Translations under genes and position numbers: made by a program | Assembly: GCA_023898465.1 (NCBI GenBank) | Contig: CP060223.1 | Location: forward strand, 640,001 to 704,000 | DNA: 64,000 nucleotides | Direction: 5' to 3' | Source: Candidatus Nomurabacteria bacterium | Lineage (GTDB): Bacteria; Patescibacteriota; Patescibacteriia; HK-STAS-PATE-3 | Shown: one piece after another, positions 4,799 through 55,347 of the stretch | Position numbering within the stretch: the stretch's first letter is position 1 | Layout: each line of letters begins with the position of its first letter | Notes under the pieces: model-generated | The model's database searches: none | What the model was told of the DNA's origin: nothing | What the model saw: the letters and a program-made list of their open reading frames with translations, nothing else

Positions 4799-4852
4799 AC
4801 CGACACTACGATATTAATTTTTGTCCGTCAAGTACTTGCATCTGACCGGTAT

Positions 4853-4880: not shown

Positions 4881-4883
4881 GTT

Positions 4884-5999: not shown

Positions 6000-6011
6000 A
6001 CGTGCGCATCA

Positions 6012-6878
6012 TTACAGGTTCATATAATTCTGCTGGTCAAATATGTCAACCTCTGGCAACACCTCGACCGTCACGCTACTAGGCAGGGAGCGAAACCACT
6101 GCGCGTCAATCGACTTTGTTGTACCCGCCTCAAAAGACCGTAAAAGTACTGTGGTAAGCGCAATGGGGGTACTATTTTGCAATAGCACGACGGGAACCCG
6201 CACCGACCAGAATCCGTAGAGTGAATCGTTTTGAATATTTGCTGTGACTCGCGCAAAGGTCTGACCGGAATTTGGCACTGTCACAGTAGCAGTGTAACTC
6301 ACATCACTCACGGTAAAGCCAATATTCTCAAGGAGTTGAATATCACTTAGACGCTGCCACGTTAAGGAGATAACCTGAAACTGCACTTTTTTACTATCAC
6401 GACTGCCTTGCCAATCTTCTGCCAAGCGGTACACATAGCTTGACTGTCCTGGCGCCAAACGAGTGGTCTGAGTCGCAGTGCTAGAAACTCCATCGCTAAA
6501 AGTACTTGTAATACTGGCTACCCAGGTCGTGTTTGGATTCTCTATTTTGGTAACAAGGTCAACTCCGTCATTCGCGGCTGATAAGAGTGTGACATCATCA
6601 ATAACGAGAGTCTCTGGTGCCACATCACTCAAGGCGCTGGGAGCAGTTAAGGCTTGTGCGCGTTCCACAAAACCACGCTCTATCCCCCGCCCCTGTACCA
6701 AGTAGAGAAAAACTGAAGTAATGACAAAGGCAAAGAGTAAGGTGTCAGCCACAAGAATAGCTAAAACCCACCATTTACGAAGCTGAAAACGGTGGACCAA
6801 AAACCACTCGCGTAAACGCAAAGGCAAATCATTGAAACGAAAGCCGCTGCTTGGATAGTCTGATTGCTCGGAATCCAT
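6012..6878 (-). CDS. Membrane-anchored hypothetical protein, located directly downstream of the SEDS gene.
   Basis: One N-terminal TM helix and an extracytoplasmic Ser/Thr-rich domain. No motif recognised. Confidence 0.45.
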   Translation of the reverse strand: MDSEQSDYPSSGFRFNDLPLRLREWFLVHRFQLRKWWVLAILVADTLLFAFVITSVFLYLVQGRGIERGFVERAQALTAPSALSDVAPETLVIDDVTLLSAANDGVDLVTKIENPNTTWVASITSTFSDGVSSTATQTTRLAPGQSSYVYRLAEDWQGSRDSKKVQFQVISLTWQRLSDIQLLENIGFTVSDVSYTATVTVPNSGQTFARVTANIQNDSLYGFWSVRVPVVLLQNSTPIALTTVLLRSFEAGTTKSIDAQWFRSLPSSVTVEVLPEVDIFDQQNYMNL

Positions 6879-15735: not shown

Positions 15736-17205
15736 TCAGTCAACCAGCACTTCCCTCCTATCAAAGTGCTGTTCGCAGTAGTGGCAGGCCAGGACTTCCC
15801 GCCCTTCTCCGTTCACATGAAAGTGAGGATAGAGCGCTGCCTCCGCATCACACCTGGTCACGCAAGCCGGGTTGGGACAAGATCCGATACCGGTGATCTC
15901 ACGCACGGTCGCCACCCGCCGCTTCGTTAGCACACCATCACGAATTTCGTTGATGGTCACTTGAGGCACCAAGATGCCGATGGCAGAGAGCTCCCTTGCA
16001 TTCAAGAAAACATCTTCCAGCCGGAGCGTATCCTTCTTGCCGCCCTGACCATTAGACCGCAGTCCCTGATCAAGTCCCACGTAGTGCGCATTTGGATCCA
16101 GACCGAGCACCGACTGAATCCTCCTGCCAAAACCTACAGGCAAATGATCAAGTACCGTCCCGTTACTGATGGGCAAGAAGCGCTGCTGCGCCAACTGCTT
16201 GCGAGCAATCGCTTCATCAGCCGACCCACTTCGCACATCCTCGATCTCCGGCCCAATCACCTCAAGAGGTGTCTCCGCACAGCGACTATGGAGCGCCTCA
16301 TTCAAAAGGGCCATCCTGATCGGCACGCCGTTCGCTGCCTGAGCGTCGATGATGACTCGTGGGTCACCGAGGACAGAAGGATGAATCTCATTGTCACCGA
16401 TCGGCAGGGGGTGCATCACCAAGACCTTAGACCCAAGCATGTCTAGGGCCGCCTGGTCAATCGTGAAACGACCGGCAACCCTGTGGTATTCGTACTCGCT
16501 CGGGAAACGCTCTCGTTGCACCCGAGTCGCATAGACCAAGTGGCACCCTGCCAGCGTCTCCAAATCACTCGCCACGGTGACATTGTACATGCCTCTCGTA
16601 TACCACCACTGCAACTGTGCTTCCGGTGCTGAGACTAGTACAATCTCCACACCCTCTAGCAGGCGCAGTGCGCGAATCAAGGAATGCACCGTGCGAGAAT
16701 ACTTGAAATCACCCACGAAACCAATCTTGAAACCATTCAGTCGACCCAAATGGCGCCGAATGGTGTAGAGATCAAGAAGGGTCTGGCTGGGATGCTCATT
16801 CGCACCGTCGCCAGCATTGAGTACGCAGAGTTGCATACCTCGCCGTGCAGCCATCTCAGCCACCCAACGAGGAGCACCCTCCACTTTTGTCCGCATCACC
16901 AGGGCTGACCCATTGTAGCCGCAGAACATTCGTGCGGTTGCCCCGAGTGTCTCCCCCTTTACCAAGGAAGTTCCCTCGGCCCCTGAGGTCAGCACATGCG
17001 GCAGACCCAGCAGACGCGCTGCCTCCTCGAATGATCCGGCGGTCCTAGTGCTCGGCTCTCCAAAGAGAAGCCGCACAACACCTTGATCGCTAACACTCGG
17101 CAAAGGCTCGCCCTTCTCCCAAGTCATTCGATAGGACTCAGCACTTGCCAAAACCCCATCGATGAAAGGAAGATCGAAATCACCAACCGAGATCACATGC
17201 TTCAC
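15736..17205 (-). CDS. pyrB: Aspartate carbamoyltransferase with the catalytic (PyrB) and regulatory (PyrI, Zn-binding Cx4C...Cx2C) chains fused in one polypeptide.
   Basis: STRT and HPSQ carbamoyltransferase motifs in the N-terminal part, and a C-terminal PyrI zinc domain (CPNPAC...CHYCE). The GTG start at 17205 is preceded by AAGGAGG; the ORF-track start at 17262 lacks an RBS. Confidence 0.8.
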   Translation of the reverse strand: MKHVISVGDFDLPFIDGVLASAESYRMTWEKGEPLPSVSDQGVVRLLFGEPSTRTAGSFEEAARLLGLPHVLTSGAEGTSLVKGETLGATARMFCGYNGSALVMRTKVEGAPRWVAEMAARRGMQLCVLNAGDGANEHPSQTLLDLYTIRRHLGRLNGFKIGFVGDFKYSRTVHSLIRALRLLEGVEIVLVSAPEAQLQWWYTRGMYNVTVASDLETLAGCHLVYATRVQRERFPSEYEYHRVAGRFTIDQAALDMLGSKVLVMHPLPIGDNEIHPSVLGDPRVIIDAQAANGVPIRMALLNEALHSRCAETPLEVIGPEIEDVRSGSADEAIARKQLAQQRFLPISNGTVLDHLPVGFGRRIQSVLGLDPNAHYVGLDQGLRSNGQGGKKDTLRLEDVFLNARELSAIGILVPQVTINEIRDGVLTKRRVATVREITGIGSCPNPACVTRCDAEAALYPHFHVNGEGREVLACHYCEQHFDRREVLVD

Positions 17206-17391
17206 TGCTTGCCTCCTTGTCAACCCAAGCAACAACTTCGATGTTAAACACAGAAGGTTCACTCCTGTGCCCTCTAGAAGAACTGAGTCCCGCGTACCGA
17301 AGCATCAAGAATGCTCCCGGGTACGAAATCTATTTAACCCACATGAACCCATATGCGACTCACTGGGTTATGCGGAGGTATGTCAACGAGC

Positions 17392-21473: not shown

Positions 21474-22163
21474 TTATTTTAGCACTTCTTGTACAGTCTT
21501 CCAGACTTGCTCAGCAATATGTTCGCGATCCTGCATCACGCCATTTTTGGTACACGTTATCACCTTCCAGGAAAAACGTGCTGATAAGCGATGCGCCATT
21601 TCCCAACTCGTCTGCTGATGACGTTTATTCTTTTCCAGACTATCGACAGCCTTTCCGCCCAGGTAATTACGATGACCTTTTGCTCGTACGAGCTTACGTC
21701 CTATGGTATGCGGCACGGAGAGAAAAACAGTCAGATCAGGCTTGAGCACTCCAAGTATGTGATACTCCATTTCTTCTAACCAATGGAGATACTCCTTCTG
21801 CTCCAAAGCTGTTTGAAACTTGGCCGCCTGATGCATCATGCTTGAGGAAGTATAGCGATTACAGACAACTACTTTCCCTTGCGCTAACCATTTATTCAAC
21901 TGATCCTTTGCCTGCCAACGATCAAGTGCATACAAGAGTGAGGCAAGATAAGGATTCACTTTTAGTGTCGGTCCAAATTTGCCCTGAATGAATTGACCGA
22001 CCATGGCCCCAAAGAAACTTTCATCATAACGAGGAAAATCAGCTAAGGCAGTCTGATACCCCTGCTTTTTTAGACGCTGAATAAGGAGACCAGCTTGCGT
22101 TGCCTTGCCAGATCCATCCACCCCGTCGAGTACGATCAGTTTTCCGCTTTGCTTCTTTTTCAC
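21474..22163 (-). CDS. tmk: Thymidylate kinase.
   Basis: GKLIVLDGVDGSGKATQ P-loop and DRY motif. Confidence 0.85.
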   Translation of the reverse strand: MKKKQSGKLIVLDGVDGSGKATQAGLLIQRLKKQGYQTALADFPRYDESFFGAMVGQFIQGKFGPTLKVNPYLASLLYALDRWQAKDQLNKWLAQGKVVVCNRYTSSSMMHQAAKFQTALEQKEYLHWLEEMEYHILGVLKPDLTVFLSVPHTIGRKLVRAKGHRNYLGGKAVDSLEKNKRHQQTSWEMAHRLSARFSWKVITCTKNGVMQDREHIAEQVWKTVQEVLK

Positions 22164-22223
22164 AGGCCAAGTTTAGCATACGCAAGAGCCAAATTCCAAG
22201 TTTTTTATCCAATGATGCATCAC

Positions 22224-22252
22224 TTGAAAAAAGCTGTAAAAACACCTACAAT
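22224..22252 (+). promoter_or_regulatory. Sigma70-like promoter (TTGAAA, 17-nt spacer, TACAAT) in the divergent tmk/thyX intergenic region.
   Basis: Direct hexamer match. The ATG at 22271 follows about 12 nt after the predicted start site. Confidence 0.45.
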
Positions 22253-22270
22253 CCCCATGCTTTTCCGCTA

Positions 22271-23974
22271 ATGATTCCACCCATGCCTACATTCACACCC
22301 GAAGAAATCGAAGTGCTCAAAAAGTATATCACCGACCCCACGGGTGATGTTTTTTGTATTAAAAACATGCCTGGTCTGGTTGGAGCAGCCTATGCCCGCT
22401 ACAGCCGTGCCCGTGGCGGATTTCGAGAAGTACTACTCAAAGAATTTATTAGCGAAGGGGTGGTAGACGCCGAGCATGCGGAAGATCTTATCGAGCGTGT
22501 CTTAATTGCCTATGGCGATGATTCAGTTGGCGAATTAGAAGGCGCTCACATCTCTTTTGAAAATATCTCCATACTTGCCACGAAAGAAATTGAAGAATGT
22601 CGCATTGGTGGCTCCCCCATCGAGCAATCCACTCGTTATGTTTTCTACGACCAAAAAGATGCGCAGGGAAAATATAAATACATTGTCCCGCCTGAACTAG
22701 AAGGAAGCGATTTAGCAAATGAATATACCGAGGCCATGGACTTCCTCTTTGACACCTACTGCCGCCTCATCGAACCCATGAAGGAATTTTATAAGAAGCG
22801 ATTGCCCCTGAAGCAAGCTGAATATGATGTGCTAGGAAATGGCAATAAGCAGCACTATGAAGAGCTGGAAAATGAAAAAGACCAAAAAGCCTTTAAGACA
22901 ACTTATAACATGGATATTCGCACAAAGGCCTGCGACACTTTGCGCTATATCCTCCCACTAGCAACGACCACCAACGTCGGTATTTTTGGCAATGGCCGAT
23001 TCCATCAAAGCATGATCTCTGCTCTACTCTCCAGTCATTTTCGAGAAACCCAAAGGCTGGGCGATGCGGCTTTGCGAGAGCTGAGTAAAATAATTCCGGT
23101 CTATGTGCGGCGCGCCAAGCGAGATGAATATCGCACCACGATTGAACATGACATGGAACGCTTAGTAAGCGACTTACTCGCCAATGTGGAGGCAGAAACC
23201 CCGACTGAAGAAATACACCTTATGGACGAAGGCGAGGCGTATATTGCGAAACATTTGAACGGCCAAAGCGACCCTGCGGCGCTTCGTCAAGCTATAGCCC
23301 GATATCGTGATACTTCCCTCCTGGCCCACATCCTCTATGCCTACGCCCAGCATCCTTTGTCACAGCTAATGGATTTTGTTGAGCAACTTTCAGAAGAAAA
23401 ACGTAAAGAGATTATTGATACCTACATTGGTCAGCGCCGCACCCGTCGTGACCGCCCTTATCGTGCTTTTGAAAGCGGCTACCCCTACACCTTTGACCTG
23501 GTTACCGACTTTGGCAGCTACAAAGATCTCATGCGCCATCGCATGACCACGCAGCTACGTCAGCGCTTCTCGCCTGAGCTGGGCTTTGCCATGCCGCAAG
23601 ATATTATTGAGGCAGGCTTCAGCGAAGAGATTCAGGCTTGTCATGAGCGCTCACAAGAACTTTATCGCAAGCTAGCCAAGCAACTTCCTCAGATTGCTCA
23701 ATATGCTGCCCTGCACGGCTCTAAAGTGCGCTGGGTGATTGGGATGAACGAACGAGAGGCCTATCACCTACTTGAACTCCGCACCACTCCACAGGGCCAT
23801 CCTGCCTATCGTAAAGTCGGCCAGGAGATGCACAAACGTATTCAGGAGCGTTCAGCTTGGCGCGCCGCCCGTATGAGCTTTGTTGACCACAACAGCTACA
23901 CCTCTGCTCGCGGCGACTCAGAGGCAAAGCAGCGAGTCAAAGAACGCAAATACGAAGAAACGCACGGCGCCTAA
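22271..23974 (+). CDS. thyX: ThyX-like flavin-dependent thymidylate synthase, unusually long (about 567 aa, possibly a duplicated domain).
   Basis: RHR...S-type motif (MRHRMTTQLRQRFS) in the C-terminal half and a ThyX-like N-terminal half. The ORF-track start at 22100 would overlap the tmk start, so the in-frame ATG at 22271 is taken instead. Confidence 0.5.
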   Translation: MIPPMPTFTPEEIEVLKKYITDPTGDVFCIKNMPGLVGAAYARYSRARGGFREVLLKEFISEGVVDAEHAEDLIERVLIAYGDDSVGELEGAHISFENISILATKEIEECRIGGSPIEQSTRYVFYDQKDAQGKYKYIVPPELEGSDLANEYTEAMDFLFDTYCRLIEPMKEFYKKRLPLKQAEYDVLGNGNKQHYEELENEKDQKAFKTTYNMDIRTKACDTLRYILPLATTTNVGIFGNGRFHQSMISALLSSHFRETQRLGDAALRELSKIIPVYVRRAKRDEYRTTIEHDMERLVSDLLANVEAETPTEEIHLMDEGEAYIAKHLNGQSDPAALRQAIARYRDTSLLAHILYAYAQHPLSQLMDFVEQLSEEKRKEIIDTYIGQRRTRRDRPYRAFESGYPYTFDLVTDFGSYKDLMRHRMTTQLRQRFSPELGFAMPQDIIEAGFSEEIQACHERSQELYRKLAKQLPQIAQYAALHGSKVRWVIGMNEREAYHLLELRTTPQGHPAYRKVGQEMHKRIQERSAWRAARMSFVDHNSYTSARGDSEAKQRVKERKYEETHGA

Positions 23975-28204: not shown

Positions 28205-28630
28205 TTATCCTTCTATGGTAATACCCATGTTACGGGCAGTACCCTCAATGATTTTCATAGCTGCTTCGATATCGCGGGCATTCAGGTCAGGCATTTTCTT
28301 TTCGGCGATTTCTCGCACCTGTGCTTTGGTAATTTTGCCCACTTTATTTTTTAACTGATCACCGGAACCTTTTGGCACGCCAGCTGCTTTGATAATTAAG
28401 ACAGAGGCCGGTGGAGTCTTTAATACAAAGTCAAAGGTGCGGTCTTCGTAGATGGAAATGACTACCGGGGTAGTCTCCCCCATCCGATCGCGAGTCGCAT
28501 CATTGAATTGCTTCACAAAGTCGCCAATGTTGACGCCATGTGGTCCGAGCGCGGTACCGACTGGTGGCGCTGGTGTAGCTTGTCCCCCAGGGATCTGTAC
28601 CTTTACTTGTGTCTTCAGTTTCTTTGCCAT
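28205..28630 (-). CDS. rplK: Ribosomal protein L11.
   Basis: [29 protein letters not shown]. Confidence 0.9.
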
Positions 28631-28632
28631 AG

Positions 28633-29178
28633 TTATAATTTCTTAATCTGGAGAAAGTCGAGTTCAACGGGAGTTTCACGGCCGAACATTGAGACGAGGA
28701 CCTTTACCTTACCTCGTGCTTCATCGACCTCAGAAACTTTACCTTCAAATTCCTTAAACGGACCATCAACGATCCGGACCGGACTACCCACACCCACGTC
28801 AATCTTATACTTCGGTTCTTCAACACCCATACGGCGTTGCAATTCCTTCACTTCATTTTCAGAAATTGGGGTCGGGGTCGTACCAGTACCTACGAATCCA
28901 GTTACATTCGGTGTGTTACGCACCACGTACCAGGAATCGTCAGTCACAATCATCTCCACCAAGACATATCCTGGGAAGATTTTTTCTGTCACTACTTTAC
29001 GTTTACCGTTTTTAATACGGATTTTGTTCTCGGTCGGAATCAAGACGCTAAAAATCTTGTCTTCCATATCCATGGATTCGATACGTTGTCGCAGGTTGCG
29101 AGCTACGTTTTCTTCGTATCCGGAGTAAGTGTGGAGCACATACCAACGGCGCCCCATTTGCAGTGTCTGCTTTGGCAT
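28633..29178 (-). CDS. nusG: Transcription antiterminator NusG.
   Basis: [14 protein letters not shown] domain and a KOW C-terminus. Order is secE-nusG-rplK-rplA. Confidence 0.9.
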
Positions 29179-29182
29179 ATCC

Positions 29183-29368
29183 TTATGTTAGGAAAGTTTC
29201 CAATAGAAAGTTTAAAGTATAGTCGACAATCCCTAAAAATGCAGCCACGCCTAGACTGACAGCAATAACCATCAGGGTATGGCGGGTAGTTTCACCGCGA
29301 GTCGGCCAGACGACCTTTTTTAGCTCGTCACGCGATTCACGGATGTAATTTACTAGGTGAAATGCCAC
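29183..29368 (-). CDS. secE: Preprotein translocase SecE (GTG start).
   Basis: 61-aa single-TM protein directly upstream of nusG, with the KVVWPTR motif. Confidence 0.7.
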   Translation of the reverse strand: MAFHLVNYIRESRDELKKVVWPTRGETTRHTLMVIAVSLGVAAFLGIVDYTLNFLLETFLT

Positions 29369-29391
29369 TATTGAAGCTCTTAAAAACCGCC

Positions 29392-29413
29392 CAATCCGGG
29401 CAGATGTCCACAG
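29392..29413 (-). terminator. Intrinsic terminator between the lipid-synthesis fusion gene and secE.
   Basis: CTGCCC-ggatt-GGGCGG followed by UUUUU on the minus strand, 24 nt before the secE GTG. Confidence 0.4.
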
Positions 29414-29545
29414 GATACGATATTTTTACCAAGTCGTCAAGTAGTCTCGGTAAACCATAGTAAAAAGAAAATCTGGATATATACACCTTCCCGTTTCACT
29501 GAGTCCCTGCCCGCCAAAGTCCAGCAAAACCGGACGAGGGCGTGG

Positions 29546-30538
29546 TCAAGTAGCCCTCTCTCGTATGCCAGTCCCTTCCCCTATCCATGTCACGAGCAGG
29601 TGTAAGGCAAAACCTAAGGCCAGCATAGTAAACATGTGCGAGAGTGAAGGAAGATACACAAAAGCGCCAAAGGCTATGCCTCCCACGATGTAATCAATCT
29701 GATCAAAGGGAAACCAGGACTGACCTGGGGCAATGTTCACTCGACGCTTAAAAAAGCTCTTAAGCAGATCGCCAGCTAGAGCCCCGAAGCCGAGTAAAGC
29801 TCCAAAGGAGAGACTCTGCGAGGTATAAGAAAAAAGGCTAATATCCTGCACCCAAGTATACTTGAGGTAAAGAAAGCGCTGCAGCCAAAATGTCAGCACA
29901 GCTCCAAGCACGCCGGCCAATATCCCTCGGTAGGTTTTATGGCTGCCGAACAAAGGCTGGCCATGAAAGTAGGCGCCAAAATCAACTGGCCAATTAGAAC
30001 GTGGGAAAAGCTTGACCGCAAAGATGGGAAACATATTTGCCACACCCATGGGTAAAAGCAACCAAAAACTGCTGAGTATGAGCGTGAGTGGATTTGCCTC
30101 AACATGCAGGAGTAGGGCGAGTAAAAAGATGAACCTGCCAGGCAAGGCAATGCTTTTGTGAAAGAAAATACCTACCAAAGAAAGAAGGGTGTTCACACAC
30201 CAGAGTGCAGCCCAAAATACGCCGAGTGGTAAGAAGATAACTGCCTCGGAAAAACGATCAAGGCCAATATCCACCAGCCAGCCATGTTGACTCCCCCGTT
30301 GATACTGTCGAGCCACAGCTCCGTCCAGCCAATCGAGAAAGAGGATAAAGATGAGCAGAGCGATAGTCCAAGCTCGACTGATGCTAAAGACTGGTATAAC
30401 AAACAAGCTTAAGCAGAAACCTACTAAGCTGATAGCATCGGGCGAAACATTTGGTAAGCGAAAAATCCAGAGCCGGCGAATCCAGGCACGGTATGTCTGC
30501 ACCCAAGTAAATCGCTGTGGGGCAGTCTGACTCTCCAT
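29546..30538 (-). CDS. Fusion protein with an N-terminal CDP-alcohol phosphatidyltransferase and a C-terminal CarS-like (DUF46) CTP-dependent cytidylyltransferase.
   Basis: N-terminal half has the exact D-G-x2-A-R-x8-G-x3-D-x3-D motif (DGAVARQYQRGSQHGWLVDIGLD). C-terminal half has GSHKTYRG and DLLKSFFKRRVNI...FDQID, which match CDP-archaeol synthase family motifs. Confidence 0.65.
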   Translation of the reverse strand: MESQTAPQRFTWVQTYRAWIRRLWIFRLPNVSPDAISLVGFCLSLFVIPVFSISRAWTIALLIFILFLDWLDGAVARQYQRGSQHGWLVDIGLDRFSEAVIFLPLGVFWAALWCVNTLLSLVGIFFHKSIALPGRFIFLLALLLHVEANPLTLILSSFWLLLPMGVANMFPIFAVKLFPRSNWPVDFGAYFHGQPLFGSHKTYRGILAGVLGAVLTFWLQRFLYLKYTWVQDISLFSYTSQSLSFGALLGFGALAGDLLKSFFKRRVNIAPGQSWFPFDQIDYIVGGIAFGAFVYLPSLSHMFTMLALGFALHLLVTWIGEGTGIRERAT

Positions 30539-30547
30539 CGACCTCGC

Positions 30548-34893
<4,346 letters not shown>

Positions 34894-36491: not shown

Positions 36492-38819
36492 TCAGTCTTT
36501 CGTCGCATCATTGATAATTTGATAGTGATTTGGTGCGATTTTTTCCATCATCTCAAATAATTCATTCACAATCTTTTTTGTCTCTGGGACGAGCGCTGGA
36601 TTAAAACCGGATCCAGTAATATGTGATTGATCATTTGTAAATTTGTATATGGCGTCTAACTTTTGTTCATCATACCCATTTTGTTTTAACTCCTCTATCT
36701 TTTTATATGATTTTTTTCCATTTGGAACACTGAACATTAAAAACGTATCCCAAACCTTCCTTGCTATATTAGGAATAGGATATGCCTTGGCGATAGAATC
36801 ATCTTGTTCATCGCGAAGATATTTAAGTAATTTAAAGAGATAGTGGTATTCACTTTCATATTCACAAAGCTCTTTATCCATTCTATCAATGTAGGCACAA
36901 CGAATGTTCGAGGGAAAATAATTTTTTATCATAAAGTACCCGGTATTATCTCTCCCGGCACCCCTCCGCCAATTGATCAAAAGTTTCAAGAAATCAAAAC
37001 TATGAGTAAAAATAAACACTTGCCCGCCGTCTTTTACTGCACCCTTCAAAAAACTAAAGGCTTGATAAAGAGAATTTGAATCGAGGCTAGATACAGGATC
37101 GTCAATGAGGATGATTCCATTTTGAAGATCAAAACTCTGATCTTCAAGATGCACCACAAAATATATAAAGGCAATAGCGGTCTTTTCACCTTCGCTTAAA
37201 TATTTTGCAGCAGAGTCATCGCGCATGATATTGTACCCCGAAACAACCTCTTTTTCATCACCATTCTCGCTAATAACCGTTTCGATGCGCGGAACAAATT
37301 TTAGCTCTCTGTGCCCCAAATAAGTTGCTATTTTTTCATTGATGACTTCACAGGCCTTATGTTTCGATGAGATTTTCGCTGTATTTTCTTCAATTCTTTT
37401 ATTTATCTCCTCAATTTCTTTTGTTAATGTGTCTATGTTTTTTGTTAGATTAGAAATATCTGATTCTATTTTTTTTATATCGTCAAAAATTGTACTCAGA
37501 TAGTGGAATTTTATTTTTTCCGCAGCCCTCTGTTTAACGGTATCAAAATCCGCAGTTCGTTTTTTGTGTTCATCAATAATGGCATTTACGCTATCAACAA
37601 CTTTATATAGACCGATACTGCTCAATTTTTTATCATGCTCTACCCTTTCGGTCGTCTTACTTTTCTTACTTTTAATTTTATCCGCAAGATTTGTAATATC
37701 GTTGACAAATTGTTGTTTAGCTAGTTCAAAATTAACTTTTTCTGTCTCTAGGTTTGTTTGTAGGTCTTTATAGAATCTCGTTTTCTCGGGAATTGTTATA
37801 TTTTGAATAACGGAGTAAAGCTTCCTTAATTTTTCAACAAGACTATCCAGGTCTTCTTTTAATTTTTTGTCTGCATTATTAAAATAAAGTGCCAATTGCT
37901 CTACTCTATCATTTGGAATATTTTGTAAACAGTATTCGCAAACATCTGAAGAATGTCTTTTGTGTAATTTTACCCCCTCTTCTACCCATTCTGAAATATC
38001 ATTATTTTCTGCAAGTCGATTAATAATCTCGGACTCAACTTTTTTGTTTAATACGTTTTCTGCCTCGGTATTAATGGAATTTACAATTTCAGAAATTTCG
38101 TAATTGTTTTGATCTATTTCGACTTTCGGAATAAATATTCTATCCAAAAATGGTAGAGATTCCTGCTTTAAAGAGATTAATATATTATTGAGCTCTACTT
38201 CTTCTAGCTCCACCTTCCTATTAATTTTAGAAAAATCACTTTCTGCCTGCGGCCTACGATAATCTCTTAATGCATTTCCTCCGATCGCAGCTCCTATGGT
38301 TTTTGCAATTTCGGTGAATTGACCATCGCGACTTGCTTTAAGCCGCTTATGGTCTTTTTTATAATCTGCCAATCTTGCAATTTTTCCTCTTTGCTTCGGA
38401 TCAGATGAATCGCCGTTGAGTAAAGTTCTATCTTTTTTAATTTGAACAGCGAGATCTTTATTTTCTTCACCGAGTAAAATTGAAATTGAATTTGCACGGC
38501 CTTCTATAAGCTCAATATTTCTTTCTATATAGTCTCTGTTGAAAACTCTGACTTTTGGAGGGAATGTGTCGTTTTGATCGTACCTATTTCCATTCTCGTC
38601 TTCAATTTCATACTCCAGATTTTCAATACTCACCCCGCTTAAAGCATCAAATAAACGGGAGAGTGTTGTTTTGCCGCTTCCATTCCAACCATACACTAAA
38701 TTAAGTTGCTTGAAATTTGGCAAGGTTGATCTAGATCGTATTCCTGAACCCCAGACATAATTAGAAAAAACAAGTCCGAGATTTTTTATTTTATTGATTC
38801 TTTGGATAGCATTACCCAT
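36492..38819 (-). CDS. PrrC/RloC-like (AAA_13) Rad50-type ATPase with a coiled-coil CxxC zinc hook; candidate anticodon nuclease or abortive-infection defence protein.
   Basis: N-terminus NLGLVFSNYVWGS...LNLVYGWNGSGKTTLSRLF (Walker A). A 500-aa coiled-coil insert carries CEYC. The C-terminal head has the signature LSEGEK, Walker B IILIDDP, D-loop SSLD, H-loop FTHS and a roughly 150-aa C-terminal domain. The gene sits in a 25-30% GC island. Confidence 0.65.
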   Translation of the reverse strand: MGNAIQRINKIKNLGLVFSNYVWGSGIRSRSTLPNFKQLNLVYGWNGSGKTTLSRLFDALSGVSIENLEYEIEDENGNRYDQNDTFPPKVRVFNRDYIERNIELIEGRANSISILLGEENKDLAVQIKKDRTLLNGDSSDPKQRGKIARLADYKKDHKRLKASRDGQFTEIAKTIGAAIGGNALRDYRRPQAESDFSKINRKVELEEVELNNILISLKQESLPFLDRIFIPKVEIDQNNYEISEIVNSINTEAENVLNKKVESEIINRLAENNDISEWVEEGVKLHKRHSSDVCEYCLQNIPNDRVEQLALYFNNADKKLKEDLDSLVEKLRKLYSVIQNITIPEKTRFYKDLQTNLETEKVNFELAKQQFVNDITNLADKIKSKKSKTTERVEHDKKLSSIGLYKVVDSVNAIIDEHKKRTADFDTVKQRAAEKIKFHYLSTIFDDIKKIESDISNLTKNIDTLTKEIEEINKRIEENTAKISSKHKACEVINEKIATYLGHRELKFVPRIETVISENGDEKEVVSGYNIMRDDSAAKYLSEGEKTAIAFIYFVVHLEDQSFDLQNGIILIDDPVSSLDSNSLYQAFSFLKGAVKDGGQVFIFTHSFDFLKLLINWRRGAGRDNTGYFMIKNYFPSNIRCAYIDRMDKELCEYESEYHYLFKLLKYLRDEQDDSIAKAYPIPNIARKVWDTFLMFSVPNGKKSYKKIEELKQNGYDEQKLDAIYKFTNDQSHITGSGFNPALVPETKKIVNELFEMMEKIAPNHYQIINDATKD

Positions 38820-45028: not shown

Positions 45029-48000
45029 CTAGCGATTCAGCGGCATGCTGAAGCGTCGCTTATCGAACAACACAACGAATCCGCTGATTATAGCCATCAT
45101 GCCGAGGCCAAAGGCCGCCACATCACCCCAACCAGATCCAGTATCAGCCAAGGTTGATGCACCAAGGACCTGACCGCGCTTCACTACCACATTCTGGCTG
45201 GCGCGAACTTCGCCGTAATTATCTGCTACGGCTTTTGCTACGTTGAGGTAATTCCCAGACGCAGCATTATCAGCCACCTTCACCTCATAAGTGATAGTGC
45301 GAGTATCGTCAGTAAACATGCTGCCGAGAGTCCAGACACGTTCGGTCAAACCTGAATCAGCAAAGGTAAAGCCCTCAGGTAAGATATCTGTTACGCGCAC
45401 GTTTAAGGCAATGCCATCACCAGCGTTTGTTACCTTCAAGGTGTAGGTCAGATAATCACCTGGCTTTGCCTCGTTGGTGTTCACGCTCTTAGTAAGGAGT
45501 AAGAGCGGCTCAGTGCTGACACCCAGGACAGACCCAAGGCGTACCTCAACGGTTGCTTCATCAGCCACTGGATCGGTGTTATCTGCATCAGCTGTTGCTA
45601 CGTTGTCGTAGAAACCGGCCGCTTGGCTGGTGCTCACAATGACATCATAGGTGACTGTCATGCTTTCATTCGCTGCGAGATCACCGAGTGGGAAGCTGCG
45701 AACTGACAAGCCAGTGTCTACAAAGATGAAACCAGCTGGCAATTGATCAGTCATGACTACATTCACTGCAGTGGATTGGCCAATGTTCTTCACGACCACG
45801 GTGTAGGTTACTGTTGCACCCGGATTCACAAAGGTGTCGACATTGACCGACTTCACAATGCTCAGCTCAGGACTGAGAAGCTTGTTACCAAAGTTATTCG
45901 CATTGGAGACTAAGCCTGAAGTCATCACAATCGGACCAAGGGTGATAGGGCTGGAAGTCTGCTCCCAACCATCTTGCAATGTTTCGCTTAACCAGTAGGT
46001 ACCAGGACCAAGATCAGTGAAGCTGTAATTACCATCAGCGTCAGTTAAGGTATCAGCAATAATTGCACCCGGCTGACCATCCTCATCTTCCCAAAGGTTA
46101 ATCTGCCAATTGGCTAAGCCGCTTTCATCCTCATCCCAGGTGCCGTTGCCATTCACATCATGCCATTTTGCACCGTTGATTGATCCGAGTTGAAAGTTAC
46201 CAAAGTCATTCCCGGTCAAGGTAGTGTTTTCACCCAGCTCGAGCGGACCAATAACTACTGGCTCAGAAGTTTGCATCCAACCATCCACTAATGCCTCGTT
46301 CACCCAGTAGGTACCTGGCTCAAGATCAGTGAAGGCGTAGCTGCCATCGGCTGCAGTCTGCGTCGTGGCAATGATATTGCCCGGGCCGTCTTCACCATCA
46401 TCCCAGAGATTAATAGTCCAGCCCTGGATGCCTGGCTCGCCAACTTGTCGCACGCCATCGCCGTTCAAGTCATTCCACTTGGTACCGGCAATAGTAAGTG
46501 AGCGGGTGTTGCCAAACTCCACATAGGCTGGTTCGCCTTGCACTACTTCAACTTCTACACTGAGTGGCGTGGTGTTCATCCAAGCATCTGGCAGGACTTC
46601 ATTCACTTCGTAGGTACCAGTTGGCAAATTCGCAAAGGAGAAACTGCCATCGCTGGCACTCACTTTGCTTTGCCCATTGCTTAGCTGGATAGTGACACCT
46701 TCGATGCCTTCATCGCCGTCGTCACGTACACCATTCGCATTGTGGTCATAATATTTTACTCCGGTGATTTCTCCGGTGTTGCGGGTATTCTCGAGCACAC
46801 AAGTACCACCCTGGCGACCGGTGTCTAAAGTGATAACACCATTTGCATAACTACAGATTCCACTCGCGTTAGTTAAGGTGTAGAGGTTATCGTAGCTACC
46901 TGAAGTTTCAGTCACCATGTACTGCGTCATTGTCGGCACTGACACTGGAGCGCTTGCTTCAGTGAAATCACCCAAGCCTTCAACATGGAAGGTCCAATCC
47001 TGATCGGTCGATGGTCCGCCGCCTACGACTACTTTATCAAAGTCGATAGTAGTGAAGTCGCGCGCATTACAGAGCGTGATGGATGTTTCCTGATCTTCAA
47101 ATACTTCTACCGGCACAGGCAGGGTCGTGCCTTGCGGATTTGTACATGAGTAATCGGAGATATTTTTGTCATCATACCAACCAACAAAATGCCACCCAGG
47201 CAATTGCGTTTCAGTGATTTGATGAGGGCCAACACCGGTCTCGTTGGGCGTGCCCATATCTCGCATCTTTGTTTCAGTGATATCACTCCACTGGAAACCA
47301 AGTTCATTTGCTCGGACATTACCGCCCTCAAATATACCATCACCGTTTTCATCGACTTTCTTATTCACCGTCAGATCACCAGTCGGGCAATCAAGCGGAG
47401 CGGTCAATGAAGATGCGAAGAGAATAAAGCTCTCACCATTATCATCTTCTGGTGATTCGATTTGATAAGCAAAGTAGGTCGCGTTGGCTGGAATAGTTAC
47501 CGTGACTGTTGGATGATCCCACTCTGGACCTTCGTGCGAAGTGAGCAAGTTATGCAGCAGCTCTGTTGCGCCAGCTTGATCAACCAGGTTTGTTGGAACT
47601 GCACCAGTGGCACTCTTTACCCAGAGCGCATCACCGCGATTAGGGTTCGTGTGATCGCCGCCGCCCACACTCAAGGTAAGTGTTGCTTGTCGATCATAAT
47701 CTACTGGAGCAAAAGAATAACTGTACACTTCAGTGTCTGGACCTTTGGGGAAGTAGGGTCGATTCCAATATGCGGTATCCACTCCTCCCAACCAAGTCAC
47801 CAGAGAGGCATCAACATCTTCAGATGCATATACCACGTAAAGACTCGCTCCTAACATTGTGTAAGGACTGGAGTTCTCTACTGTATATGAATGCGTGCCG
47901 GTACTCACATAGCTGCTTACATTTGCGACGTACGCTACTGCATCCAGCGCCTCGCGATACTCAGTACCATTCACTGCATGTCCGTTAAACACAAAACTTG

Positions 48001-48736
48001 GATCGCTCTCTTCTTCATAGGCGCCCCAAATAAGATAGGCCGCTGCAATAGTACCTGGTACGTCGAGATTGCTTATCACACCACTTCCGTCATCTTCTAA
48101 TCCAACTCCTGCGCTGGCAACCGCATAGCCGGCAGTTTGACCCTGCGAACAAGCTGTTTGAATCGAGAAAAGGTTTTCTAAACCACCGGTAGTACGCCAG
48201 TTACCAAAATCAATCTCCGTGGTCTGACCCGCCGTAACATGTACGTTTTCTGTCACATTACCGGTTGTCACTTCCCAATCAGGAAGCTGGGTTTCTGTGA
48301 CGGTATAGTCTCCGGCATGCAGGTGAGGTACATAAAAACCGGATTCTCCACTCGTATCACCCTCGGCCACAATCTGGTCCTGCATATCACGCACCACAAA
48401 GTGCCAATCGCTCAGCCATGGGTCAGTGTCATGGGCGGTATTACGGATACCGTTACCATTATCGTCATAAAACTTCCGAATGCGGAGGTTGCCAAAGGTA
48501 AGCGCTGAATCGTCTACATTTGTACCCAGGCTAAGGCTTGTACCGCCCTCCTGAGAGTTATCCACAGCTTGAACTGGCAGCTCAGCTGCTTGGGCAGCCA
48601 GCACCGTTCCTAGGCCGGTAGTCTGGAGCACCAAACTAAAGACTGCCACGACGCTCAATAGATTGAATAAGCGCCGACGGACTCCCTTGCTAAGACCCCC
48701 CTGATATTCCCCCCTGAATAGTGATAACGTAGGCAT
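45029..48736 (-). CDS. Large (1235-aa) cell-surface protein with SdrD-B-like/Cna-B-type repeats and DUF11 repeats, and a C-terminal LAxTG sortase-type anchor.
   Basis: Signal peptide. Repeated DxDxDG calcium-type motifs (DLNGDGVRQVGE..., DVNGNGTWDEDE...). Two DUF11-like repeats. C-terminus LADTG, hydrophobic helix, KRR tail. AGAGGAG RBS. Confidence 0.8.
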   Translation of the reverse strand: MPTLSLFRGEYQGGLSKGVRRRLFNLLSVVAVFSLVLQTTGLGTVLAAQAAELPVQAVDNSQEGGTSLSLGTNVDDSALTFGNLRIRKFYDDNGNGIRNTAHDTDPWLSDWHFVVRDMQDQIVAEGDTSGESGFYVPHLHAGDYTVTETQLPDWEVTTGNVTENVHVTAGQTTEIDFGNWRTTGGLENLFSIQTACSQGQTAGYAVASAGVGLEDDGSGVISNLDVPGTIAAAYLIWGAYEEESDPSFVFNGHAVNGTEYREALDAVAYVANVSSYVSTGTHSYTVENSSPYTMLGASLYVVYASEDVDASLVTWLGGVDTAYWNRPYFPKGPDTEVYSYSFAPVDYDRQATLTLSVGGGDHTNPNRGDALWVKSATGAVPTNLVDQAGATELLHNLLTSHEGPEWDHPTVTVTIPANATYFAYQIESPEDDNGESFILFASSLTAPLDCPTGDLTVNKKVDENGDGIFEGGNVRANELGFQWSDITETKMRDMGTPNETGVGPHQITETQLPGWHFVGWYDDKNISDYSCTNPQGTTLPVPVEVFEDQETSITLCNARDFTTIDFDKVVVGGGPSTDQDWTFHVEGLGDFTEASAPVSVPTMTQYMVTETSGSYDNLYTLTNASGICSYANGVITLDTGRQGGTCVLENTRNTGEITGVKYYDHNANGVRDDGDEGIEGVTIQLSNGQSKVSASDGSFSFANLPTGTYEVNEVLPDAWMNTTPLSVEVEVVQGEPAYVEFGNTRSLTIAGTKWNDLNGDGVRQVGEPGIQGWTINLWDDGEDGPGNIIATTQTAADGSYAFTDLEPGTYWVNEALVDGWMQTSEPVVIGPLELGENTTLTGNDFGNFQLGSINGAKWHDVNGNGTWDEDESGLANWQINLWEDEDGQPGAIIADTLTDADGNYSFTDLGPGTYWLSETLQDGWEQTSSPITLGPIVMTSGLVSNANNFGNKLLSPELSIVKSVNVDTFVNPGATVTYTVVVKNIGQSTAVNVVMTDQLPAGFIFVDTGLSVRSFPLGDLAANESMTVTYDVIVSTSQAAGFYDNVATADADNTDPVADEATVEVRLGSVLGVSTEPLLLLTKSVNTNEAKPGDYLTYTLKVTNAGDGIALNVRVTDILPEGFTFADSGLTERVWTLGSMFTDDTRTITYEVKVADNAASGNYLNVAKAVADNYGEVRASQNVVVKRGQVLGASTLADTGSGWGDVAAFGLGMMAIISGFVVLFDKRRFSMPLNR

Positions 48737-49523: not shown

Positions 49524-50138
49524 TTACTGCATCGCTTCCTTTAATCGCATGATGCTGACCAGGGCGCCTCGCTCCTGCTCATCCAATTTGCTGGAAATGT
49601 ATTTCACATTCCGCTCAATCTCGGGAACAAAGACAAACTCAAGTGCATTCACACGACGACGCGTCTTCTCAATCTCAGCTGAGAGTAAACGAGCTGAGTG
49701 CTCGGTCTGAGCTAACTCCACGATCTTTGGCAGCGCATCTGAGAATGTTTTCAGAGAAGTATCAAGTCCAGAGGAAGTAGTTGCCAAAGAGTAGCTCAGG
49801 AAATCACCTGACTCGGCATACTGAAACTGTGGCACCTGCACACTCATGACGTTCTTGGTTGCCACCTGCAATTGAATTTGCTTCGTGGTGACTGCCAGCG
49901 CTTCCTCGGTTACTTCCGGACGCATATCAGCTGAAGCGATAATGAAACTCTGGAACGCTTGACCGAGCTGAGCCTCTACTTCTTGTCGTAAGCTGCGAGT
50001 CTTTTTGATGATACCTAAGAACTCCTGCATCAAGCCTTCGAGTTTTTCCTCGAGTAAAGAATGACCGCGCTTGGCCATCTTGAGCTTACCCTTGAGTCGG
50101 ATAAGCTCCATGCGTGTTGGGTTAATCGTTTGCGCCAT
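49524..50138 (-). CDS. ntpD: A/V-type ATPase subunit D.
   Basis: MAQTINPTRMELIRLKGKL and coiled-coil central stalk. Confidence 0.85.
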   Translation of the reverse strand: MAQTINPTRMELIRLKGKLKMAKRGHSLLEEKLEGLMQEFLGIIKKTRSLRQEVEAQLGQAFQSFIIASADMRPEVTEEALAVTTKQIQLQVATKNVMSVQVPQFQYAESGDFLSYSLATTSSGLDTSLKTFSDALPKIVELAQTEHSARLLSAEIEKTRRRVNALEFVFVPEIERNVKYISSKLDEQERGALVSIMRLKEAMQ

Positions 50139-50221
50139 AGGGTAATGAGTGTTCGAGCGTATCCGCCCAGAGCGGAGAAGTCGAGAACCGAGCTTAGCTT
50201 CTCGACAAGCTCGAAGACTAA

Positions 50222-51628
50222 TTAGGAGTCAGATTTGGGTAAATACTTCTCAATATATTCTTCTTTCACACGCTTCAGTTCAGACTTCGGCAAGATGGAG
50301 AAGAGTTCCCAACCGAGATTCAAGGTCGTGAGAATATCGCGATCCTCATACTCACCTTGGTTGATGTAGCGTGACTCAAACTGCGTGGCAAATTCCACGT
50401 ACTTCTTATCAACGTCGGACAGAGCAGCTTCACCGAGGATAGCGGCTAATTCCTTTGCCTCAGTGCCACGAGCGTAGGCAGCATAGAGCTGGTTAAAGAC
50501 TCCGGAGTGATCCTCACGAGTCTTCTCTTCTCCGATACCCTTCGGCATCAGACGAGAGAGACATGGCAGCACATCAACTGGAGGACGAATACCGCGCTTG
50601 TGCAAGCCGCGGCTTAACATGATTTGTCCTTCGGTAATGTAGCCGGTCAAGTCAGGAATTGGATGTGTCTTATCATCTTCCGGCATGGTAAGAATCGGGA
50701 TCTGGGTAATTGAACCCTTCTTACCCTTGATCATACCAGCGCGCTCGTACAGGGTAGCTAAGTCAGTGTAGAGGTAACCTGGGTAGCCACGGCGACCTGG
50801 GACTTCTTTACGAGCTGCCGCAACTTCACGCAAGGCTTCACAGTAGTTAGTCATGTCGGTCAGGATAACCAAGACGTGCATGTCCTTTTCAAAAGCCAGA
50901 TACTCGGCAGTGGTCAGAGCCAAGCGAGGTAGAGTGATACGTTCAACCACCGGGTCATTTGCCTGGTTCAAGAAGAGTACCGCGCGGCTGATAGCACCGG
51001 TCTTGCGGAATTCATTTACGAAGTATTCTGCTTCTTCAAAGGTGATACCCATAGCGCCAAAGACTACAGCGAATTGGGAATCCTCTGCTTCCACTTTACC
51101 CTGCGGGGAAACGCGAACCACTTTTGCCTGACGAGCGATTTGGGCGGCCATGGCATTGTGTGGCAAACCAGCGCCGGAGAAAATCGGTAGCTTTTGTCCA
51201 CGCACTAAAGTATTCAATCCATCAATCGTGGAAATACCGGTTTGGATAAAGTCATTTGGGAAGTTACGGGAGTATGGGTTAATCGGATTACCGTTCACGT
51301 TCAAACGTGCTTCGGCAATGATTTCGGCTCCACCGTCTTTTGGCTTACCTGAGCCGTCAAAGACGCGACCAAGCATGTCGGTGGAAACTGGCAATTCCAT
51401 AACGCGGCCGAGGAAGCGGGCGGAAGCATCCTGCACGCTAATACCGCGAGTGTCTTCAAACATCTGTACCACTGCCCGATCATTGTCGATTTCGAGCACG
51501 CGGCCGCGGCGAATCTTGCCATCAGGCAATTTCACATCGACCAGCTCTTCGTATTTGACGCCTTCCACTCCCTCAACAATGAGGAGAGGACCAGCGACTT
51601 CACGTAGTGTCTTGTATTCTCGTTCCAT
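50222..51628 (-). CDS. ntpB: A/V-type ATPase subunit B.
   Basis: Non-catalytic nucleotide-binding subunit motifs. Confidence 0.9.
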
Positions 51629-51639
51629 ATGCGTGCTCC

Positions 51640-53385
51640 TTAGTTAGCGGCAGCTACGGCGGACGGAATCTCCGTCACCAGCTGCTCCAGCTCCTTAATC
51701 TTCTCTGTCGGCACTTCTTTCATGCGGCCGATGCGCTCTTTGATTGGCAGGTTGACCATCTGCTTCAAGTTCACTCCCCGCTCCAGCGCCTCTTGGGCGG
51801 CGTGGTGGAAGGCCAGGATACCCTTTAACATGTAGTATTGCTTCTGCAGACTGGTGTAGGTATCAACGTCATCGAAGGCGTTTTGCATCAGGAAGTCTTC
51901 GCGTAATGCTCGAGCGGTTTCTAATACTAATTGCTCCTTAGCCGACAAAGCGTCCTGTCCGACCAAGCGAACGATTTCTTCTAGCTCAGACTCTTGCTGC
52001 AGTAAGCGCATAGCTTCACCGCGCAATTCGCCGAAATCACTGCCGGTTTCTTTGCTGAAGAAGCTTTGTAAATCATCTGAGTAGAGTGAGTAGCTGGTTA
52101 ACCAGTTAATTGATGGGAAGTGACGGCGATAGGCCAGCTTCGCTTCGAGTGACCAGAACACTTTTGTCACACGTAAGGTGTTTTGCGTTACTGGCTCAGA
52201 CAAGTCACCGCCAGGAGGAGAAACAGCTCCTACCACAGTGAGTGAACCTTGGCGACCTTCGCTACCGAGTGTTTCCACGATTCCAGCTCGCTCATAAAAG
52301 GCGGCGGTACGGGAACCAAGATAGGCTGGGTAACCTTCTTCACCTGGCATTTCTTCCAGACGACCAGAAATTTCACGCATAGCCTCGGCCCAGCGGGAAG
52401 TTGAGTCAGCCATCAAGGCAACGCTGTAACCCATGTCACGGAAATATTCCGCAATAGTGATACCGGTATACACCGATGCTTCACGAGCTGCCACCGGCAT
52501 ATTGGAGGTGTTGGCAATCAACACTGTGCGTTCCATCAAAGGCTTACCAGTCTTAGGATCTTTTAACTCAGGGAATTCCAGCAACACGTCAGTCATTTCA
52601 TTGCCGCGCTCACCGCAGCCGATGAAGATAACAATGTCCGCATCAGCCCACTTCGCCAGCTGGTGCTGAATCACGGTCTTACCAGCGCCGAAAGGACCAG
52701 GGATACACGCGGCACCGCCCTTCGCAACTGGGAAGAAGGTATCAATAATGCGCTGTCCGGTAATCAGAGGACGCATTGGAGGTAATTTTTGCTTGACCGG
52801 TCGTGGATCGCGAATTGGCCAGCGCTGCAACATGGTGATTTCTTCTTTATCAACCACTGCTACAACTTCGGTAATGTTGTGTTCACCTGTCGCAATTTTT
52901 TTCACAGTACCTTCTTGAATATGTGGAGGTACGAGAATTTTGTGGGTGATCAGGCTGGTTTCTTGCACCTCACCCAGGACATCACCAGCGTGCACGACAT
53001 CACCCTCTTTTACCTTTGGCTGAAAATCCCACTTCTTTTCTTCATCAAGTGGAGCTACATCCAAACCGCGACCGATGAAAGCGCCTGAGCGCTCTTCCAG
53101 CTTCACGAGCGGTCGCTGAATACCATCATAGAACGAGGTCAGCAAACCCGGACCCAGAGTCACGGCCAGAGGGAGCTCAGTGCGGTACACTGGCTCGCCT
53201 GGTCCTAAACCTCCGGTGTCTTCATACACCTGGATATAGGCTTGATCGCCGTCCAGACGGATGATTTCTCCGACCAATTTCTGTTCGGATACTTTCACCA
53301 CTTCATACATTTTCGCTCCTTGCATGCCTTTCGCAACCACGAGAGGGCCGGAGACTTTGGTGATAATTCCTGTGTGTTCTTTCAT
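51640..53385 (-). CDS. ntpA: A/V-type ATPase catalytic subunit A.
   Basis: P-loop GPFGAGKT. At 581 aa there is no intein. Confidence 0.9.
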
Positions 53386-53450
53386 ATAATTCTCAAGTAT
53401 TCAAGTTGCAAATATCAAGCTACAAATTACTACTTGTCATTTGATACTTG

Positions 53451-53777
53451 CTACTTGTCGTTTTTAAAAAGTATATCGCTACCTACTGCGCGCTCGACAA
53501 TACGACGCAGCTCTCGATCCCCCGCTCCAGTCGAACCAGTTGGCCCAGGGACCACGGTGACTGCTGGCAAAGCTCGAGTACGTAATTCATCTAACTCTGG
53601 ACGCAATTGATCAGCCCAATCCTCGGTGATGAGGAGGATGGCGCATTCTGAAGCAGCGATTTGCTGCAGCACCTCACGACCTTGCTCAGCTGTGGCTACT
53701 GGCCAAGCCCGCACGCCTAGCGCTTTGAAGCCGCCGATGGCATTTGGTGAACCAAGAATAGCGATTGGATGATCCAT
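53451..53777 (-). CDS. A/V-type ATPase subunit F. The start is taken at MDHPIAILG.
   Basis: Subunit F family pattern. The ORF-track start overlaps subunit C. Confidence 0.7.
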   Translation of the reverse strand: MDHPIAILGSPNAIGGFKALGVRAWPVATAEQGREVLQQIAASECAILLITEDWADQLRPELDELRTRALPAVTVVPGPTGSTGAGDRELRRIVERAVGSDILFKNDK

Positions 53778-53778
53778 G

Positions 53779-54774: not shown

Positions 54775-54777
54775 AGT

Positions 54778-55341: not shown

Positions 55342-55347
55342 GGATGC

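Follow-up and report, generated by a model that had tools for sequence, protein, structure and literature searches.

Can one short membrane protein both make a CDP-activated lipid and attach its head group? The question is raised by a gene in a 64,000-nt stretch of a Candidatus Nomurabacteria genome (NCBI GenBank assembly GCA_023898465.1, contig CP060223.1, positions 640,001–704,000 of the forward strand), here called the window. At 29546–30538, on the minus strand, there is an open reading frame (ORF) of 330 amino acids (identical to the database protein P0001) that joins a short CDP-alcohol phosphotransferase domain to a CarS-like (DUF46) CTP:lipid-phosphate cytidylyltransferase domain. Judged from its sequence, the protein is probably a bifunctional enzyme with ten transmembrane (TM) helices and both termini inside, in which the CarS-like half would make the CDP-lipid and the short transferase would attach the head group. 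Both domains belong to known families, and the two-step chemistry is that of the standard CDP-lipid pathway; no description of a CarS-transferase fusion was found in the open-access papers searched.

An earlier note on this DNA had proposed such a fusion, and the gene does run as one ORF from its ATG at 30538, uninterrupted by any stop or frameshift. Both domains are recognized above their Pfam gathering cut-offs: PF01066 (CDP-OH_P_transf) with 33.8 bits (cut-off 22) at residues 32–122, matching only profile positions 3–102 of 152, and PF01864 (CarS-like, DUF46) with 84.6 bits (cut-off 22) at residues 152–325, matching positions 3–170 of 175. A lost stop or a frameshift arising in sequencing or assembly could have joined two neighbouring genes, and the change required would be small: on a metagenome contig (L088) the same two genes are present separately, with a 4-nt overlap (ATGA) that one indel could fuse. 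The same 330-aa ORF, however, is found both in the NCBI metagenome-assembled genome (MAG) of this Candidate Phyla Radiation (CPR) bacterium, on a 1.08-Mb contig, where it is annotated only as ‘CDP-archaeol synthase’, and in a separate Logan assembly of SRR12358675. The junction (...HVEANPLTLILSSFW) has neither a Met nor a start site from which translation of the CarS half could begin, so this half cannot be produced alone. Two more fused orthologues, from other samples and assemblers, lie in the same genomic slot, and on their evidence an artefactual origin was rejected; it is effectively excluded.

These orthologues also give a measure of rarity. When 1.84 billion representative proteins were searched exhaustively with HMMER, 1916 relatives were returned, nearly all of them stand-alone CarS-like proteins of ∼183 aa, and only one (P0122, 336 aa) aligned from end to end. 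A profile search of a 5.8-billion-cluster collection added P0268 (337 aa). With three proteins in 5.8 billion clusters, the fused architecture is very rare. P0122 and P0268 contain the same two Pfam domains, with the transferase match again ending early, at about position 101 of 152. They share 34–35% identity with the window protein and 55% with each other, and all three retain D69, D72, G73, A76, G86, D90, D94 and R95 along with every CarS motif. P0122 follows gyrB (the C-terminus of which is seen upstream) and P0268 precedes secE-nusG, the same slot as in the window; in the same comparison NusG is 81% and SecE 66% identical. P0122 and P0268 are the orthologous proteins of related CPR lineages, which have diverged considerably while keeping the fusion.

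The CarS-like half occupies residues 150–330 (29549–30091, minus strand) and is predicted to have the CarS fold, with five TM helices and two cytoplasmic loops. Two motifs mark these loops. GSHKTYRG (198–205) includes HKTYRG in the first loop (residues 200–205, 29924–29941, minus strand), where 90 CarS-like sequences show no variation at K201 and G205 and next to none at T202 and R204. The second loop and active-site motif, GDLLKSFFKRR...PFDQID, is found at residues 256–282 (29693–29773, minus strand); in full this is GDLLKSFFKRRVNIAPGQSWFPFDQID, which aligns with a 28-residue stretch of CarS from Aeropyrum pernix (ApCarS). PF01148, the family of the canonical bacterial CdsA, scores 18.3 bits, under its gathering cut-off of 24. 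The earlier assignment to CarS rather than CdsA thus holds at the level of the family, but not at that of a true CDP-archaeol synthase: the equivalog model NF003114 gives 101.9 bits for the window protein, 112.8 for P0122 and 94.7 for P0268, against a cut-off of 148. Since this cut-off is not reached, family membership does not fix whether the lipid substrate is of the bacterial or the archaeal type.

The transferase half (residues 1–147, 30098–30538, minus strand) consists of an amphipathic helix (11–23) followed by TM1–TM5; the canonical TM6 is absent. The class I CDP-alcohol phosphotransferase signature is exact at residues 69–94, the part from D72 on having been given in the earlier note: D69xxD72GxxAR77x8G86xxxD90xxxD94, followed by R95 (30254–30334, minus strand). 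It is likewise kept in P0122, with one R to K change in P0268. The six TM helices that are the hallmark of the class are not all present, there being five ahead of the CarS domain, and alignment with stand-alone CPR transferases shows that the fused domain lacks the last helix and most of the TM4–TM5 loop. Among subfamily models the best scores are those of NF045883 (phosphatidylinositol phosphate (PIP) synthase) and NF040950 (archaetidylinositol phosphate synthase), with 42.7 and 52.9 bits against cut-offs of 170 and 180. The same two models are the best for all four short-type domains, at 40–64 bits.

Such a truncated domain need not be an enzyme. It could be a degenerate relic, serving as a scaffold, a dimerisation module (canonical CDP-alcohol phosphotransferases dimerise through TM3/TM4) or a module that binds and hands off the CDP-lipid, so that only the CarS-like half would be catalytic. 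The parts that have been lost, TM6 and most of the TM4–TM5 loop, help to form the acceptor pocket in solved structures, and the Pfam and NCBIfam profiles are matched over their first two thirds only. The N-terminal half of the window protein is 28–34% identical to the others, and the Arg of the signature varies (R, K or E) among the five known short-type sequences. Against this, the four metal-binding and catalytic Asp residues, both Gly residues and R95 are invariant in the three orthologues, and all five short-type sequences retain R135 at the beginning of TM5; with only ∼30% identity in this half, such conservation is not what would be expected of a relic. The short form is also maintained as a gene of its own, in translational coupling with CarS-like genes in L088 and in a Nanoarchaeota MAG (L040). 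A non-catalytic transferase half is therefore considered unlikely, and a working transferase of reduced size is preferred.

The reduced size fits the topology. An AlphaFold2 model, built on a 90-sequence alignment, has a mean pLDDT (predicted local distance difference test) of 85.5, with the CarS half above 95. It places TM helices at 33–53, 55–78, 86–105, 107–126 and 131–146 in the transferase and, after a three-residue link, at 150–177, 203–226, 244–266, 278–291 and 299–323 in the CarS part; it contains no soluble domain. The two halves meet at VEAN (residues 147–150, 30089–30100, minus strand), a very short external loop that leads from TM5 of the transferase to TM1' of CarS. ApCarS has five TM helices and an active site formed by two cytoplasmic loops (review PMC9385802), and it follows that the N-terminus of a CarS domain must be outside. 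A canonical six-helix transferase, with both ends inside, could not precede CarS without one of the active sites being flipped, and only a five-helix transferase fits. The distribution of Lys and Arg agrees with the two-cytoplasmic-loop layout of ApCarS, the counts in predicted cytoplasmic versus external loops being 17:2, 24:3 and 25:0 in the three orthologues, a strong positive-inside signal for the modelled ten-helix topology with both termini inside. In this model the signature loop between TM2 and TM3 (79–85) and the two CarS loops (178–202 and 267–277) are all cytoplasmic, which answers the question of the earlier note whether the two active sites face the same side.

Where did the five-helix form come from? 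It is also found unfused. On L088 there is a 147-aa short transferase, 46–47% identical to the N-terminal halves of P0122 and P0268, whose TGA stop overlaps the ATG of the CarS-like gene, and this is the unfused form of the same pair. At ∼590–600 of this contig the ‘AR’ of the signature reads ‘AE’ (GAA), which may be a real loss of Arg or a single-base error, the contig being only 1.1 kb long and of low coverage. L040 encodes a 148-aa transferase with the hallmarks PLPNxNP and DWLDGxIARKY...GWWxD...DRxSE, in a tight operon with a 195-aa membrane protein and a CarS-like gene, and a groundwater contig (L100) displays the same arrangement. The ORF between the short transferase and CarS-like genes is a conserved multi-pass membrane protein of 195–199 aa (L040 4521–5108, L100 366–965), and the 195-aa protein of L040 has no Pfam or NCBIfam match. 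On these comparisons the short transferases make up a distinct subfamily. As it also occurs unfused (L040, L088), the five-helix form was probably available before the fusion, for which a minor change where stop and start overlap would have been enough. A neighbour-joining tree of 84 CarS halves groups the three fused proteins with the CarS-like protein of L088 in one clade of seven tips; the tree has no support values, and so it is weak evidence for a single origin.

Separate genes for the two enzymes are far more widespread. Using GTDB species-representative genomes, 80 stand-alone CarS-like loci were surveyed for a transferase ORF within 6 kb; on the CPR side these came from Saccharimonadia, Parcubacteria, Kerfeldbacteria, Dojkabacteria and Levyibacteriota, and on the DPANN side from Woesearchaeota and Nanoarchaeota. 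A CDP-alcohol phosphotransferase ORF is present at 58 of the 80 and is directly adjacent at 32: upstream of the CarS-like gene on the same strand at 18 loci, downstream on the same strand at 4, and on the opposite strand at 10. It lies further off within the flank at 26 loci, in about 20 of which only a PHP-family ORF separates the two genes, and no transferase ORF was found at the remaining 22. None of the 80 loci carries a fusion. There is close coupling at some of them: in L004 the stop of the transferase overlaps the CarS-like start, and in L007 the order is reversed and the pair again overlaps. By NCBIfam, partner transferases of ∼205–210 aa are nearest to PIP and archaetidylinositol phosphate synthases, and those of ∼171 aa to PgsA/ClsA.

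In one genome (L005, GCA_029260965.1) five genes stand side by side at 2595–6555: an inositol-1-phosphate synthase, a PIP synthase-like transferase, a PHP-family gene, a YegS/BmrU-type (diacylglycerol-kinase-family) lipid kinase and, directly after the kinase, the CarS-like gene. From its gene content this cluster reads as a putative salvage route from diacylglycerol to phosphatidylinositol. The gene between the PIP synthase-like transferase and the CarS-like gene encodes a PHP-family, CehA/McbA-like metallohydrolase in many Saccharimonadia and other CPR bacteria, at about 26 of the loci L008–L087 (for example L016 5348–6004) and in L005 (4431–5087). The PHP-family gene of such operons is a candidate for the phosphatidylinositol phosphate (or phosphatidylglycerol phosphate) phosphatase; in mycobacteria the former enzyme was described as ‘yet-unidentified’ in the 2019 paper on PgsA1 of Mycobacterium tuberculosis (MtPgsA1; PMC6506517).

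That CarS-like proteins of CPR bacteria and DPANN archaea would supply CDP-lipid to a CDP-alcohol phosphotransferase is suggested chiefly by gene association. Together with the overlapping L088 pair, this association also gives strong backing to the claim of the earlier note that one polypeptide makes the CDP-lipid and passes it on, as far as architecture and functional linkage are concerned; the activities are read from the families. On these comparisons the fusion would be a rare derived state of a widespread gene pair, sometimes a trio with the PHP-family gene, and the pair itself looks like a module for head-group synthesis, resynthesis or salvage. In the open-access papers searched, CarS in CPR, Patescibacteria, DPANN or Saccharibacteria receives only passing mentions, with no discussion of these proteins in CPR, and CarS is not mentioned by Coleman et al. 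2019.

The reaction sequence would then be as follows. In the first step, expected from family membership, the CarS-like domain would combine CTP with a phosphatidate-type lipid to give CDP-lipid and pyrophosphate; in a lipid-auxotrophic CPR bacterium this lipid would most likely be scavenged diacyl phosphatidic acid. In the second, the N-terminal five-helix domain would move the phosphatidyl group from the CDP-lipid to an alcohol acceptor, releasing CMP. The data show the architecture, the conserved motifs, the folds, a topology signal, the gene association and the orthologues; we only infer the two activities, the identity of lipid and acceptor and any channelling from one site to the other, and the choice of diacyl phosphatidate for this bacterium is the least secure step. 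Purified AfCarS strongly prefers digeranylgeranylglyceryl phosphate (DGGGP) over phosphatidic acid, and it does not complement an E. coli cdsA mutant (review PMC9385802), so the lipid substrate cannot be assumed either way.

An archaeal-type or other isoprenoid lipid is an alternative for the substrate. The fusion would then be a true CDP-archaeol synthase and archaetidyl-head-group synthase acquired from DPANN archaea, or would activate another lipid phosphate such as a polyprenyl phosphate. The best family models of both halves are indeed archaeal (NF003114 and NF040950), CPR and DPANN CarS-like proteins are intermixed at 41–52% identity, and short-type transferases are present in Nanoarchaeota too (L040). 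Some other CarS-like fusions bear PAP2 or DUF212 phosphatase domains, and the known substrates of PAP2 enzymes include both phospholipids and polyprenyl diphosphates. All of the scores, however, are under the equivalog cut-offs, the 64-kb window contains no archaeal ether-lipid genes (GGGPS, DGGGPS), and the position of the L005 CarS-like gene after a diacylglycerol-kinase-family kinase fits acyl-glycerolipid salvage. An isoprenoid substrate is judged improbable, somewhat more so than a non-catalytic transferase half, and an acyl lipid is preferred.

The other CarS-like fusions comprise a PAP2 domain with a CarS-like domain (P0176), DUF212, a divergent PAP2, with a CarS-like domain (P0231, P0265), and a CarS-like domain with a membrane domain of ∼200 aa (P0266), whose C-terminal 200 residues have no Pfam or NCBIfam match. 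The CarS-like domain seems to be a recurrent partner in fusions with enzymes of lipid phosphates. The C-terminal region of P0266 and the 195-aa membrane protein of L040 may resemble CTP-dependent polyprenol or phytol kinases.

For the acceptor, the best guess is myo-inositol phosphate, which would give phosphatidylinositol phosphate, and it is offered tentatively. In MtPgsA1 the Arg that directly follows the catalytic Asp (R94) is conserved in inositol-phosphate-using enzymes and critical for activity, and R155 (TM5) and R195 (TM6) bind the phosphate of the acceptor (PMC6506517). D94-R95 of the fusion, invariant in the three orthologues, aligns with D93-R94 of the MtPgsA1 structure 6H53. R135 could correspond to R155, although there is no reliable alignment past residue ∼120.

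Several observations weigh against this assignment and against the two-enzyme interpretation as a whole. Without TM6 there is no equivalent of R195, which binds the phosphate of inositol phosphate. The scores of the window transferase are far below the cut-offs of the PIP and archaetidylinositol phosphate synthase models, and the matches of the short-type domains to these models cover only the first ∼115–125 positions. In place of Arg77 of the signature, P0268 has Lys and the unfused homologue of L088 has Glu; this position may be under relaxed constraint, and its variation is a warning that the short domain may depart from textbook family behaviour. On the CarS side, the shortfall from the CDP-archaeol synthase cut-off counts in the same direction. 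The 64-kb window contains no inositol-1-phosphate synthase, PHP phosphoesterase or lipid kinase, and we know of no biochemistry on any bacterial CarS-like protein or on the short type of transferase.

A more specific scheme can be imagined, although it is doubtful. The short five-helix transferase might be an obligate partner of CarS-like proteins, channelling CDP-lipid between two active sites on the cytoplasmic side within a fused or complexed pair, with helix 1 of CarS possibly standing in for the missing sixth helix. Lipid-auxotrophic CPR bacteria and DPANN archaea would by this means give new head groups to lipids scavenged from their hosts, from diacylglycerol or phosphatidate via CDP-lipid to phosphatidylinositol phosphate. 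As near-identical CarS-like enzymes occur in the bacteria and the archaea of these groups, the enzyme might even take lipids of either side of the ‘lipid divide’.

How does the fusion compare with characterized enzymes? The CDP-archaeol synthase of A. pernix (PDB 5GUF; PF01864) is archaeal and stands alone, while the fusion is bacterial, is joined to a second enzyme, scores under the equivalog cut-off, and probably acts on an acyl-based lipid rather than DGGGP. Relative to class I PIP and archaetidylinositol phosphate synthases such as MtPgsA1 (PDB 6H53/6H5A), the fused transferase has five TM helices instead of six, a minimal TM4–TM5 loop, no counterpart of R195, and scores far below the family cut-offs. 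The closest precedent is IPCT-DIPPS of Archaeoglobus fulgidus (PDB 4MND), which likewise combines a cytidylyltransferase and a CDP-alcohol phosphotransferase in one chain. Its cytidylyltransferase is a soluble N-terminal domain and activates the head group (inositol phosphate to CDP-inositol), whereas that of the fusion is an integral-membrane domain of the CarS type and should activate the lipid; the two cytidylyltransferase domains have unrelated folds. The IPCT-DIPPS model (NF041135) gives the window protein 20.6 bits against a cut-off of 580, for the transferase part only. In the usual bacterial scheme CdsA (Thermotoga maritima, PDB 4Q2E; PF01148) is separate from PgsA, PssA or PIP synthase; the fusion joins these steps in one chain and, as noted above, misses the PF01148 cut-off. 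The CPR and DPANN operons of CarS-like and transferase genes, with or without a PHP-family gene, have the same components, and L088 and L040 even the same short 5-TM transferase, but the genes are separate and most partners are full-length 6-TM proteins of ∼205–210 aa (PIP synthase-like) or ∼171 aa (PgsA-like).

The position of the gene was also as the earlier note had described it, in the secE-nusG-rplK neighbourhood, the order being gyrB, fusion, secE, nusG and rplK, all on the minus strand. gyrB (30548–32584) is directly upstream; its stop codon (30548–30550) lies 9 nt upstream of the ATG of the fusion gene, and a GAGG Shine-Dalgarno-like element (30542–30545, minus strand) is found 3 nt ahead of that ATG. 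With the gyrB stop so close, the two genes are likely to be co-transcribed; in the orthologous locus L002 the gap is 5 nt. Downstream is the secE-nusG-rplK block (28205–29368), with secE at 29183–29368, nusG at 28633–29178 and rplK at 28205–28630.

The fusion gene was thought to be separated from secE by a terminator. A hairpin (CTGCCCGG/TGGGCGG) with a T-run is indeed present at 29403–29387 on the minus strand, but it sits past a promoter-like element, TTGACG-17-TATCCT (29440–29412, minus strand), within a region upstream of secE at 29387–29440. The same order recurs with a different sequence in the orthologous locus L003 (∼1150–1215: TTGACG ... TATAGT ... GCCCCGGAAACCGCGGGG-TTTT). Because the hairpin follows the promoter-like site and the order is repeated, it is more likely to be an element of the secE-nusG leader than the terminator of the fusion gene, and the promoter-like site, GC-rich hairpin and T-run together suggest a leader or attenuator of the secE-nusG operon. 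The spacer between the fusion gene and secE contains no tRNA and matches no Rfam family.

Other genes of the window include a 508-aa ORF at 15736–17262 (minus strand) with OTCace_N, OTCace, PyrI and PyrI_C domains, a PyrB-PyrI fusion, and a complete A/V-type (archaeal-type) ATPase operon at 49524–57871 (minus strand) with subunits D, B, A, F, C, E, K/c and I. At 22100–23974 (plus strand) there is an unusually long ThyX ORF of 624 aa (563 aa on the Logan contig) in which two stretches match Thy1 (PF02511); it may be an internally duplicated flavin-dependent thymidylate synthase. A tandem pair of DUF3048 paralogues (381 and 374 aa) is located at 1426–3705 (minus strand). Between pheS and a 182-aa ORF, at 36492–38819 (minus strand), lies a gene for a 775-aa AAA_13 (PF13166) ATPase; since it has a weaker match to AAA_21, described in Pfam as a putative AbiEii toxin (type IV toxin-antitoxin), a role in defence is possible. 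A predicted surface protein of 1235 aa at 45029–48736 (minus strand), with SdrD_B, SpaA, DUF11 and DUF7507 repeats, could be an adhesin with a part in an episymbiotic lifestyle.

In every domain of life, phospholipid synthesis has its central branch point at the CDP-activated lipids, and to our knowledge little is understood of how these pass, within the membrane, from the enzyme that makes them to the head-group transferases. A natural, compact two-enzyme membrane fusion of 330 aa would lend itself well to structural and kinetic work on this hand-off, and its 5+5 helices show that the fusion of membrane enzymes is constrained by the side that each active site faces. The fusion also serves as a ‘Rosetta stone’ that connects bacterial CarS-like (DUF46) proteins with the synthesis of head groups from CDP-lipids. 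Overall, it directs attention to a module that is widespread in CPR and DPANN organisms, which are believed to rely on other cells for their lipids. This module consists of a CarS-like enzyme and a transferase, to which a PHP-family gene, a lipid kinase and an inositol-1-phosphate synthase may be added.

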